This document shows positions 15,256 through 51,778 of a DNA stretch of 64,000 nucleotides, one piece after another. Origin of the DNA: Ostreococcus lucimarinus (taxonomy: Eukaryota). How positions within the stretch are numbered: the first letter of the stretch is position 1; each line of letters opens with the position of its first letter. The stretch is taken from NCBI GenBank assembly GCA_000092065.1, contig CP000589.1; one strand, written 5' to 3'. The notes below the pieces were generated by a model. The model did no database searches. It worked only from the letters and a program-made list of their open reading frames with translations, and was not told where the DNA came from. A program made the position numbers and the translations under genes.

Positions 15256-15861
15256 TTAGTTGTTCGTATATTGCACGTATGTATCCATTGACATGAATTC
15301 ATGTCCATTCTCGGCAGCCATCTCTTGCGTCTCGTCCCAAGGACACCCGCGCTCACGCGCGTACTTCAAACATTCCAACTCTCCATCCATGGCGGCAAGT
15401 GCGCACGTCCACTCGTTCCAGGGACATCCATTCTCGTGCGCGTACTTCAAACACTCCAATTGTCCGCTCCGGGCGGCATTCATGCACGTCCTCTCGTCCC
15501 AAGGACAGCCGTGCTCGTGCGCGTACTTCAAACATTCCAAATGTCCATTCCGGGTGGCGTAATAGCACGTCCTCCAGTCCCAAGGACACTCGCGCTCGTG
15601 CGCGTACTTCAAACACTTCAAATGCCCATTCATGGCGGCATTCGCAGACGTCCATTCGTTCCACGGAAAGTCGAGTCGCCGCGCCTCCTTCAGCTGCTCG
15701 AGATAGCCAAGTTCCGCGAGTTTTGAGCAAACTAAGCCGTCTGCATCGCGCTGCGGTCCGCGAGATACATTCTCGAGGCAAGTCTCGAGGCAATCGTGAG
15801 TCTGACTGGCCCGGCGCTTGATCAATTCGCGCAAACGCGCGTATGGGTCCTTCTTAGCCAT
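15256..15861 (-). CDS. Ankyrin-like 'GCPWDE' repeat protein (tandem ~33-aa repeats).
   Basis: Five tandem repeats of the form NGHLECLKYAHEHGCPWDERTCxxAA. The underlying DNA is a ~99-bp tandem repeat across 15300-15700. ATG at 15861. Confidence 0.6.
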   Translation of the reverse strand: MAKKDPYARLRELIKRRASQTHDCLETCLENVSRGPQRDADGLVCSKLAELGYLEQLKEARRLDFPWNEWTSANAAMNGHLKCLKYAHERECPWDWRTCYYATRNGHLECLKYAHEHGCPWDERTCMNAARSGQLECLKYAHENGCPWNEWTCALAAMDGELECLKYARERGCPWDETQEMAAENGHEFMSMDTYVQYTNN

Positions 15862-16251
15862 GTGTTTGAGAGTCGCGATGTGACCACCGACGTCGTTCTC
15901 GCGCGAGATCGAATACGCGACGGGATCAAACGCGCGCGACGACGAACGAGCGTCGACGTAAACGGGCGTTCGTACATGTAATTACATCACGCTTGAAACC
16001 GTTCGCGCCGAGCGGAGCCGGCGGTATCACGTAAAACATCAAAAAATTAAACAAAATACGTCGAGCGAGCGGCTCGCCAAAGCTCGCGCGCGATAATCGA
16101 CGCCGCCACCGAACGTTAAAACGTCCGTTTCGCGACGGCGCGTCACATCTCACGCGCGAGTTCACGCACGCTCACCCGAACGCTCGCGCCGATCTCTCGA
16201 GATCGCGTCGCGACGGTTAACCCAACAGCTTCTTGTAATTGTAATAGACGG

Positions 16252-16725
16252 TTAACCCAACAGCTTGACGATTTTCGCTTCGTTATCCGCCGCGCCGTCC
16301 CCGTTGCGTTCGACGACGTTTCCATCGCGATCCACCAAAAACTTACACGCAAAGTTCCATCGCACGTCGGATTCATCCCCCGACGCCTTTTTCAAGAACG
16401 TCCACACCGGCGACGCGTCCGCGCCGTTCACGTTCGTCTTCGCCGTCACCGTCGGCGCCGTCTCGAATTCTTGCTTCGCCACGAACGCCGCGATGTCCTC
16501 CGCCTTCGCCAGCTCCTGTCCCCCGAACTGCCCGCTCGGCGTGAGCACGACGACTAAATCCGGCGAGTACTTGTTCGACAAGTCGCGCAGCGCCGCGTAC
16601 TCGCGCTTCGTCGCGCCTCACCTGCTCGCGACGTTCGTCACGAGCACGACTTTGCCCTTCATCGATGCAAACTCGATCGTCGAGCCGTCGAGCGCGGGCG
16701 CGCGCAGGTCGTGGAACGCCGCCAT
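16252..16725 (-). CDS. GPX: Selenocysteine-containing glutathione peroxidase (GPX). The in-frame TGA at 16620..16618 is read as Sec. One continuous reading frame spans track ORFs 16618..17460 and 16252..16581.
   Basis: FHDLRAPALDGSTIEFASMKGKVVLVTNVASR-[TGA]-GATKREYAALRDLSNKYSPDLVVVLTPSGQFGGQE ... VNGADASPVWTFLKK...DVRWNFACKFLVDRDGNVVERNG. The TGA sits exactly at the catalytic Cys/Sec of the NVAS(K/Q)[C/U]G(x)T motif (human GPX1 VASLUGTT). An alternative upstream ATG at 16815 would add an R/A-rich possible targeting peptide. Confidence 0.75.
16618..16620 (-). other. In-frame UGA (selenocysteine) codon of the GPX gene.
   Basis: TGA flanked on both sides, in frame, by conserved GPX sequence. 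Confidence 0.7.
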
Positions 16726-16818
16726 CGCGCGCGTGACTCTTCCGCGCGCGCGCTTCGAGCGAGCGACGCGCGCGGGCGCGAACGAGCGAGCGAACGCGCC
16801 GAGCGCTCGCGTCATACT

Positions 16819-17508
16819 ATGACGCCGACGCCGATCTTCGGCCGCGTGTTCCTCGGCGCGCGCGCGCCGACGCGCGCGGACGCGCGGCTCGCGTGCGAGC
16901 ACGGACTGCGGTGCGGGCACAACTACCCGAGCGAGCTCGTCGGGACGTCGGACTGCGACGAGGAGGCGCCGGGACAGCGCGCGAGGTTGGAGGGACAGCG
17001 ACGACGGTCGTGGGCGATAGATCGCACGCGCGCGCGCGTCGGACGCGGCGCGCGCGCGTACGAACGCGCGGTGAAAGCGCTGAAGTCGTGGGAGCACTTC
17101 GATCTCGGTTGGGCGCGCGTGTCGCGAGAGAGCGGCACCGCGGTCGGGGACGCGGTGTGCGTCGAGGCGCGCGTGGCGGGCGTGTGGATGCGGAATCCGC
17201 TGCGCATCGTCGAGCTTCGCGAGCGGGAGAAGCGCGCGAGCGGAGGCGCGTCGTCGTCGTCCGGGGCGAGGGCGAAGGCGCGGTTCGCGTTCGCGCACGG
17301 GACGCTCGGCGGGCACTTGCTCGCGGGGGAGGAGCGGTTCTCGGTGGAGCTCGCGGAGGACGGCGAAGTGTTTTACGAGGCCTACGCGTTCAGCAGGCCC
17401 GCGCACGCGCTGAGCGTGGTGAGTTATCCGTTCGTGCGATTGTTGCAAAAGCGGTTTCACTGGGATTCGTCGCGGGCGATGCGTAAAATCTTGAGCGAGG
17501 CGGAGTAG
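16819..17508 (+). CDS. Conserved hypothetical protein (~229 aa).
   Basis: Non-repetitive sequence rich in aromatics (WEHFDLGWARVS ... FYEAYAFSRPAHALSVVSYPFVRLLQKRFHWDS). ATG at 16819 lies 4 nt from the alternative minus-strand GPX ATG. The track ORF begins at 16711. Confidence 0.4.
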   Translation: MTPTPIFGRVFLGARAPTRADARLACEHGLRCGHNYPSELVGTSDCDEEAPGQRARLEGQRRRSWAIDRTRARVGRGARAYERAVKALKSWEHFDLGWARVSRESGTAVGDAVCVEARVAGVWMRNPLRIVELREREKRASGGASSSSGARAKARFAFAHGTLGGHLLAGEERFSVELAEDGEVFYEAYAFSRPAHALSVVSYPFVRLLQKRFHWDSSRAMRKILSEAE

Positions 17509-50842: not shown

Positions 50843-51778
50843 TTACAACGAATCGTGGAGATCTTTCGCGGCTCGGCACGCGTCGATGTACTCTTGTTCG
50901 GTCATTTGTTCTTTGCGGGATTCGATGACGTTGAACATGGTTTCAAGACTCTTTCTTTGCTTGACTTTTTTGTCGTGCCTCTTGGCGAAGGCAATCGTCT
51001 CGGCGTCGCCGCTCTTTTCAGCCGACGCCAGTGTTTCGTCGTCCCAAGGACAGCCATTCTCGACCAAGTGTTTCAACACGCGGACAACGCCCTTTCTTGC
51101 TACGTTCCAAGTGGCTGTCTCACTCCAACCGCAACCGCACTCTCTGAGGAAATCGATACACTGTATTACCTCGCCCGGCTGTCCCCTCGCGGCATTGGCG
51201 CACACCGCACCTATGAACGCGCTTCCTCGCTCAACAATCATATTTTTCGCGTCGTCTTCTCGTTTCCTCTTCCTTCGTTTCGTCTGCTCTTGGTAGGCCT
51301 CGATGAGGAGCGTGATTCTCGTCACACTTGTATTCTGACACGCGGTATGCACGGCGTCGTAGTCCACTTCCAGACCGAGTTCCAACGCGTACTTGAAGCA
51401 CTGCATCTGCGTCGGCACATCCGTGGCTTCGCGCAATAGGTTCGGATGCAGAGCGCAGCCATTCTCCACGGCGTACTTCAGACACCGAATGTGCCCTCTG
51501 CGAGTCGCCAGAAGCGTCGTAAAGTCACAAAACGCGCCGGTACCGAAAGACAGCGTCTGCCCGCGTGGCCACGCGGCGGCGTCCGGCCACGACTCGCGCA
51601 ATATGCACGCACACGTCTCTGGATCGCCCGTGACATGCGCGCGATATTCGGTTGTTGGCATCCGTGCCGTTTCACGCCCGTACCGACGCCGCGCGGAGTC
51701 GTCGGTGCGGCGATGAGTGACGACGATAAGACCTCGGTTTAGCGAAATCGGCGAAACCGGGCACTGGGAACCTGGCAC
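50843..51778 (-). CDS. Second ankyrin-like 'GCPW' repeat protein, paralogous in repeat type to 15256..15861.
   Basis: IRCLKYAVENGCALHPNLL...CFKYALELGLEVD...LKHLVENGCPWDDETLASAEKSGDAETIAFAKRH. It is less regular than the first copy. Confidence 0.55.
   Translation of the reverse strand: MPGSQCPVSPISLNRGLIVVTHRRTDDSARRRYGRETARMPTTEYRAHVTGDPETCACILRESWPDAAAWPRGQTLSFGTGAFCDFTTLLATRRGHIRCLKYAVENGCALHPNLLREATDVPTQMQCFKYALELGLEVDYDAVHTACQNTSVTRITLLIEAYQEQTKRRKRKREDDAKNMIVERGSAFIGAVCANAARGQPGEVIQCIDFLRECGCGWSETATWNVARKGVVRVLKHLVENGCPWDDETLASAEKSGDAETIAFAKRHDKKVKQRKSLETMFNVIESRKEQMTEQEYIDACRAAKDLHDSL

Follow-up and report, generated by a model that had tools for sequence, protein, structure and literature searches.

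The gene analysed here lies on the minus strand of a 64,000-nt stretch of Ostreococcus lucimarinus DNA (GenBank assembly GCA_000092065.1, contig CP000589.1), hereafter the window, and codes for a glutathione peroxidase (GPX) whose reading frame contains an internal TGA. It is very probably the nuclear gene, on chromosome 9, for the selenocysteine (Sec) glutathione peroxidase GpxC of O. lucimarinus CCE9901, the UGA being decoded as Sec by means of a selenocysteine insertion sequence (SECIS) element. According to the original prediction, made from the letters of the window, the TGA encodes Sec and marks neither a pseudogene nor an intron. This view is supported by the alignment of the TGA with a catalytic Cys, by purifying selection on the region past it, by the presence of a SECIS element, by the co-occurrence of TGA and SECIS among orthologues, and by the published GpxC. 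Two of the observations that would have spoken against the prediction, a missing SECIS and an intron across the TGA, were not made.

In the minus-strand GPX frame, the TGA at 16620..16618 is the single internal stop between ATG 16725 and the TAA at 16254..16252. Its context reads KGKVVLVTNVASR, then the stop, then GATKREYAALRDL, that is, VVLVTNVASR followed by TGA. The gene had been described at first as two ORFs of the same frame, 16618..17460 and 16252..16581, split by the TGA. The common frame and the TGA as sole stop between them were found as described, but the 280-codon upstream ORF is for the most part an open antisense frame of the plus-strand DUF1990 gene, its GPX part being confined to the last 35-65 codons. 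A mechanical ORF list, which gives two ORFs here, might be taken to indicate two separate small genes, or chance ORFs, abutting at the TGA. This is vanishingly improbable, given that the Pfam GSHPx model crosses the junction (profile 1 to 108) and that the upstream "ORF" lies antisense to DUF1990.

The 157-residue product, with U written as C, matches GSHPx (PF00255) with an E-value of 6.8e-26 and a score of 90.4 bits against a cut-off of 27. The match covers residues 4-112 of the product and profile positions 1-108 of 108, so that, as predicted, GPX sequence continues in frame on both sides of the TGA. The gene product is a member of the GPX family. In the Protein Data Bank (PDB), GPX4-derived de novo designs give the best matches; short GPXs come next (2rm5/3dwv, which we take to be the tryparedoxin peroxidase of T. 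brucei, poplar GPX5 and human GPX4), the last two being aligned over most of their length. The TGA had been placed at the catalytic Cys/Sec position, and it does align with the peroxidatic Cys/Sec of 9jl9 (a GPX4-derived design) and of 2rm5 (GPX-like), as well as with the Cys of orthologues carrying TGT. In the alignments with 9jl9 and 2rm5 the catalytic tetrad is complete: U corresponds to C in NVAS-x-C-G, the Q of SGQFGGQE to the Q of CNQFG, and the WN of RWNF to the WN of KWNF.

With regard to subclass, the GPX4 chains align over residues 3-142 of the query, whereas GPX1 and GPX2 align only up to residue ~113-120. In Cys-GPXs that depend on thioredoxin or tryparedoxin, the Cys of FVCT acts as the resolving Cys; at this position the product exhibits an Ala (FVAKQ, against FVCT in the aligned 2rm5). 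From the span of the alignments and the FVAKQ motif, the product appears to be a short GPx4/PHGPx-like peroxidase. As an Ala replaces the Cys at the FVC position, a GPX4-like mechanism using an external thiol is more likely than one using thioredoxin and a resolving Cys. A further feature of the protein is the sequence RWNFACKF (16316-16336, minus strand), in which a one-residue insertion places a Cys beside the catalytic Trp-Asn. The insertion is conserved in the orthologue group, whereas the aligned PDB chains exhibit WNFTKF or WNFTSF and the distant algal and streptophyte relatives P0003-P0006 exhibit WNFAAKF.

The orthologue set comprised 17 metagenomic loci from one scan and further contig look-ups. 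All loci with flanking sequence share the gene order DnaJ/TPR, DUF1990, GPX, DEX1-like FG-GAP, and they were considered orthologous because this order matches that of the window. The loci of the O. lucimarinus type (L001, L002, L005 and L006) belong to the same species (99% for L005/L006) and carry an intronless gene with TGA. The same holds for L007, which is 92% identical to the window GPX, and for group B (L008-L010, L020 and L023; 54% identity; L020 ends short of the codon). Group C (L011-L017 and L022; ~55%) also exhibits TGA (L013 ends short of the codon) and carries an intron after the NYQ codons, as seen in L011, which is found neither in the window nor in group B. Group D (L003, L004, L018 and L019; 56-58%) exhibits TGT, coding for Cys, and has its intron at the same position as group C. 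TGA is kept in L001, L002, L005-L012, L014-L017, L022 and L023, and the residues on either side of it, NVASR_GAT, are conserved, with synonymous codon changes from one group to the next (Ser AGC/AGT/TCT, Arg AGG/CGG, Gly GGC/GGA/GGG, Ala GCG/GCA). The full-length database homologues examined (P0003-P0006, P0009, P0011 and P0012) exhibit a Cys at the position of the UGA. Over the 122 codons past the TGA, the window and L007 differ by 14 synonymous and 7 non-synonymous changes; this prevalence of synonymous differences indicates that the region past the TGA is translated and under purifying selection.

The absence of a splice signal at the TGA, which had been claimed, was not confirmed: the codon is embedded in agcAG/GTGAGGcg, a string resembling a 5' splice donor. 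If cAG/GTGAGg (16623-16615) were a real donor, an intron would span the TGA and remove it from the mRNA. The string fits the eukaryotic donor consensus, and two orthologous lineages do carry an intron in this GPX gene. Nevertheless, an intron at this point is exceedingly unlikely. The donor-like string is imposed by the Arg-Sec-Gly codons (A/C)GG-TGA-GGN, and it is also present in orthologues that use other synonymous codons. GPX homology runs straight through the TGA, with GATKREY corresponding to CG(K/Y)T(E/K)xxY of homologues (e.g. CGYTKANY), and splicing at cAG/GTGAGg would remove the active site. In groups C and D, the true intron is found 8 codons further downstream, after NYQ (CAG/GT...AG), where the coding sequence of the window is uninterrupted.

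A SECIS element was looked for in the 3' untranslated region (UTR) by pattern scan and by folding, and a hairpin of this type is present 3' of the stop codon (Table 1). The scanner required a core of (A/G)UGA, a helix II with no fewer than 9 of 10 positions paired, AA located 11-14 nt past the core, a 3' GA and a helix I of at least 6 bp. Applied to both strands of the window (128 kb), it gave a single match, 16160..16083, and no second SECIS; the chance expectation, obtained from 30 first-order Markov shuffles, is 0.03 matches per 128 kb. The hairpin exhibits the characteristics of a type 2 SECIS, namely a UGAN/NGAN quartet between two helices and an unpaired AAA 11 nt past the quartet, followed by a mini-stem. 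Its minimum free energy (MFE) is -46.1 kcal/mol for the 78-mer and -41.7 kcal/mol for an 81-mer, the latter with a z-score of -2.5 relative to dinucleotide shuffles. The core starts 106 nt past the stop codon and 472 nt past the UGA. The long mini-stem and the G preceding the quartet, both found here, are described for all but one SECIS per Ostreococcus species (PMC2375036). Another SECIS-like stretch, GUGAUACCGCC...GCGUGAUG (~16030-15975), was rejected, its helix II being unpaired by eye and the stretch not being in the scanner output.

Table 1 Features of the GpxC gene and its surroundings in the window
Feature	Position	Strand	Remarks
GpxC coding sequence	16252..16815	minus	187 codons including Sec66, plus the TAA; intronless in O. 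lucimarinus
N-terminal extension	16726..16815	minus	30 codons, MTRALGAFARSFAPARVARSKRARGRVTRA; Arg/Ala/Ser-rich, 9 basic and 0 acidic residues
Predicted UGA Sec codon	16618..16620	minus	peroxidatic position; U66 in the full protein, U36 from the internal Met
Stop codon TAA	16252..16254	minus	
Proximal 3' UTR, stop to SECIS	16161..16251	minus	end of the coding sequence duplicated in tandem (35 bp)
Predicted SECIS, type 2	16083..16160	minus	78 nt; MFE fold, pattern scan, orthologue conservation
SECIS helix I	16160-16150 with 16093-16083	minus	CUCGCGCGUGA pairs with UCGCGCGCGAG; followed by internal loop GAU
SECIS unpaired G before quartet	16146	minus	
SECIS non-Watson-Crick quartet	UGAC 16145-16142 facing CGAU 16099-16096	minus	
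SECIS helix II	16141-16132 with 16109-16100	minus	10 bp
SECIS unpaired G-AAA	16131-16128	minus	
SECIS mini-stem	16127-16121 with 16116-16110	minus	7 bp; 4-nt apical loop UUUA
DUF1990 gene	ATG 16819..17508	plus	Pfam E 7.5e-41

The distribution of the hairpin among the orthologues follows that of the TGA. The scanner found a match ~70-130 nt past the stop codon in every TGA locus with 3' UTR sequence, the contigs of L002 and L022, which end at the stop codon, being left out of this test. In the four Cys loci (L003, L004, L018 and L019) no SECIS was found, even with relaxed thresholds. Relaxed thresholds also gave extra matches within the coding sequence of L007 and group B (8/10 helix II pairs); these are not conserved and were discarded as chance matches. 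Folded one by one, the hairpins of the orthologues adopt the same architecture. In the alignment of helix II and the mini-stem, 98.4% of the cells are paired, a figure that falls to 30-61% if the partner strand is shifted along. Compensatory change on both sides is seen in three pairs, and the AAA columns are invariant. Helix I was excluded from this count, as MAFFT put groups B and C out of register; in the individual folds, helix I of these groups is still paired, with sequences unrelated to that of the window. The SECIS sequences of the window and L007 differ by a single change, U.G to C-G in helix I, whereas the UTR around them exhibits substitutions and indels. The core is GUGA in the window, L007 and group B, and AUGA in group C. 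The quartet is UGAU/UGAU in group B and UGAC/CGAU, preceded by A, in group C.

These observations bear on the possibility that the gene is a pseudogene, a Cys-GPX killed by a TGT or TGC to TGA mutation, with translation ending after Arg65. A TGA is ordinarily a stop, automated callers give just a 109-residue or 98-residue fragment downstream of it, and Rfam returned no SECIS match. A dead gene would, however, have to account for retention of the same TGA in four syntenic lineages that have diverged to as little as 54% protein identity, for a downstream frame that is open and in which synonymous changes outnumber non-synonymous ones 14 to 7, and for a SECIS found with all TGA alleles but not with the Cys allele. 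In addition, the O. tauri protein named "Glutathione peroxidase C" (ostta09g00530) has been detected and quantified by proteomics (PMC8834552). We consider a pseudogene extremely improbable.

It is also very unlikely that the UGA is read through with insertion of Trp, Cys or another standard amino acid, the hairpin acting as a generic stimulator of read-through. The inserted residue cannot be identified from sequence, which leaves some room for this explanation. Against it, the hairpin has all the features specific to SECIS elements (the quartet, the AAA 11 nt past the quartet and the helix lengths), and, at 472 nt, it lies as far from the UGA as is usual for a SECIS, whereas stimulators are adjacent to the stop. 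The UGA is, moreover, at the classical Sec site of GPX enzymes. The selenoproteome of Ostreococcus is among the largest relative to genome size and includes five Sec-GPX genes. In the O. tauri proteome, 75Se is incorporated into many proteins, and O. lucimarinus has 29 selenoproteins (PMC2375036). EFsec and SecS are present in picoplanktonic Mamiellophyceae (PMC6627142).

Some results weigh against the assignment of the gene to a Sec-decoding GpxC. Rfam cmscan, run on 15700-16400 (701 nt) and on 16075-16175 (101 nt) with E <= 10, did not find the SECIS family and returned weak chance matches alone (h2cR, a trypanosomatid snoRNA and mir-2518). As the structural features of a SECIS are present and conserved, we did not take this miss as absence of the element; it is probably due to the G-type core and the long mini-stem, which would be poorly represented in the models. 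In the covariation test, 7-11 of 500 shuffles reach the observed values with 4 distinct sequences from 3 independent lineages, which is weak when taken alone. ARAGORN found no tRNA genes in the window, a result that is uninformative on the tRNA-Sec of the genome. Finally, two start codons, ATG 16815 and ATG 16725, come into question. The main weight is accordingly placed on the perfect co-occurrence of TGA and SECIS and on the uniqueness of the scan match, and not on the shuffle statistics.

The identity of the gene could be established by comparison with published data. The protein encoded by the neighbouring DUF1990 gene is identical to XP_001419485.1/ABO97778.1, a predicted protein of O. 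lucimarinus CCE9901. Additional file 2 of Lobanov et al. 2007 (Genome Biol 8:R198; PMC2375036) includes a row for the O. lucimarinus selenoprotein GpxC. This row, which reads MTRALGAFARSFAP-ARVARSKRARGRVTRAMAAFHDLRAP and, after a gap, ALDG, followed by STIEFASMKG..NVASRUGATKREYAALRDL..KYSP-DLVVVLTPSGQF, corresponds to the translation of the window from ATG 16815, allowing for noise in the PDF text. The amino acids are identical, including the N-terminal MTRALGAFARSFAP...RAMAAFHDLRAP, and the coordinates given, Chr_9 [80255,80815], equal positions 16255..16815 of the window plus 64000 at both ends (PMC2375036). This exact offset means that the window is Chr_9 64001..128000 and that the gene is the published GpxC; it is therefore already known, as a selenoprotein published in 2007, and is not new. 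The other selenoproteins of Chr_9 are located outside the window (SelU at ~185 kb, MsrA at ~236 kb and SelW at ~280 kb), and the published list places GpxC alone, with no further selenoprotein gene, in Chr_9 64001-128000 (PMC2375036). As far as the parts of that publication cited here go, the present analysis adds to its GpxC text the coordinates and structure of the SECIS, the syntenic series of orthologues from Sec to Cys, and the remark on truncated annotation.

Concerning the latter, the gene is present in public protein collections only as fragments of 98-114 residues that start past the TGA, some of which are named "glutathione peroxidase". No named NCBI protein turned up for O. lucimarinus GpxC, unlike for its neighbour XP_001419485.1. 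GpxC may thus be unannotated or truncated in the deposited annotation. As automated gene callers still cut it to a fragment of 98-109 residues, the findings are of use to annotators and provide a small case study. They also serve as a positive control, in that a Sec codon was recognised from raw sequence alone, and they open no new question.

The coding sequence had been thought to start at position 16725, but ATG 16815 is the more probable start. It is the start of the model of Lobanov et al. 2007, which includes the 30-residue extension (PMC2375036). An in-frame extension of similar composition, initiated by ATG, 28-45 residues long and starting with M-(R/T)-x-A, is present in all syntenic orthologues. 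For this reason we moderately favour ATG 16815 over ATG 16725. The composition of the extension, which is basic, suggests organellar targeting by a presequence or transit peptide. The GPX ATG (16815-16813, minus strand) and the DUF1990 ATG (16819-16821, plus strand) are arranged head-to-head with 3 bp between them; the arrangement is the same in L007, and the spacing is ~20 bp in group B. Should ATG 16815 be the true start, the GPX and DUF1990 mRNAs would have to overlap head-to-head, each beginning within the coding region of the other.

Based on these observations, the following mechanism can be proposed. The mRNA would be translated from ATG 16815, or less likely from ATG 16725, to the TAA at 16252 without terminating at the UGA. 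As in established selenoprotein biology, the SECIS would recruit SBP2, eEFSec and Sec-tRNA[Ser]Sec, and Sec would be placed at the peroxidatic site NVASR-U-G. Together with the Gln of SGQFGGQE and the Trp and Asn of RWNF, the Sec would reduce hydroperoxides, being itself oxidised to selenenic acid and re-reduced by thiols. Given that no resolving Cys is present at the FVC position, this re-reduction of the selenium probably depends on glutathione or another external thiol. The basic N-terminal extension would direct the product to an organelle.

Among the syntenic orthologues from uncultured Mamiellophyceae, group D, in which the Sec codon is replaced by TGT, appears nested within Sec lineages and is closest to the Sec-containing group C, with 74-75% identity and a common intron position. 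In L003 (2778-3324), as in L004, L018 and L019, TGT is present and a SECIS was not found in the 134-nt UTR. Close to where the resolving Cys is usually found, the group D proteins exhibit a Cys (EICSFVEDKF) that has no counterpart in any Sec orthologue. The proximity of group D to a Sec lineage and the common intron imply a change from Sec to Cys with loss of the SECIS, and these sequences suggest that the switch was recent, that it required a single TGA to TGT change, and that a resolving Cys was possibly gained. That the Sec to Cys switch with SECIS loss in group D, the alternation of GUGA and AUGA cores, and the head-to-head mRNA overlap (if ATG 16815 is the true start) all hold together is a tentative proposal, which we regard as possible and just short of probable. 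A separate peculiarity is seen in group C, where L011 (2001-2770) exhibits a Glu in place of the catalytic Gln (FPSDEFGGQE, compared with SGQFGGQE/CDQFGGQE).

Two other features of the region were observed. The exact 20-nt direct repeat GACGGTTAACCCAACAGCTT (plus strand) occurs at 16212-16231 and 16247-16266, with a spacing of 35 bp, the 3' UTR thus containing a second copy of the final GPX codons, the stop and 5 nt. This 35-bp duplication is absent in L007 (92% identical), the stop codon of which is TGA and not TAA. Between the GPX gene and the DEX1-like gene lies a 201-residue ankyrin-repeat gene (15256-15861, minus strand), with repeats ending in GCPWDE/NEWTC. L005 and L006 also carry it, whereas L007 and groups B, C and D have no such gene in this interval, an absence that indicates a lineage-specific insertion. 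At ~50945-51526 lies an ankyrin ORF of weak similarity, a distant paralogue.

Among known systems, the GpxC of O. tauri (ostta09g00530, chromosome 9) is similar to the window gene in exhibiting Sec at NVASRUGATGREY, and differs from it in sequence (...RFEERYSARGLTIVLFPCCQF compared with ...DLSNKYSPDLVVVLTPSGQF in the window), according to the published alignment (PMC2375036). Its row matches none of groups B, C and D. Mammalian GPX4 and the Sec-PHGPx of Chlamydomonas reinhardtii are short GPXs of the monomeric type without a resolving Cys, as the window product appears to be, and resemble the window gene in Sec at NVAS-x-U-G, the Gln, Trp and Asn residues and a SECIS in the 3' UTR. The identity is ~40%, and they exhibit WNFTKF and FPCNQF where the window exhibits WNFACKF and TPSGQF; the SECIS of the window, in turn, has a G, and not an A, before the quartet and a long mini-stem. 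The GPX-like proteins of the Cys type, such as poplar GPX5 (2p5q) and the T. brucei protein (2rm5/3dwv), are of similar length, belong to the same fold family and are among the best natural PDB matches, with E-values of 6e-25 to 7e-23. Plant and trypanosome Cys-GPXs are reduced by thioredoxin or tryparedoxin. In contrast to the peroxidatic and resolving Cys (FVCT) of the poplar and trypanosome enzymes, the window protein would combine a Sec with an Ala (FVAKQ).

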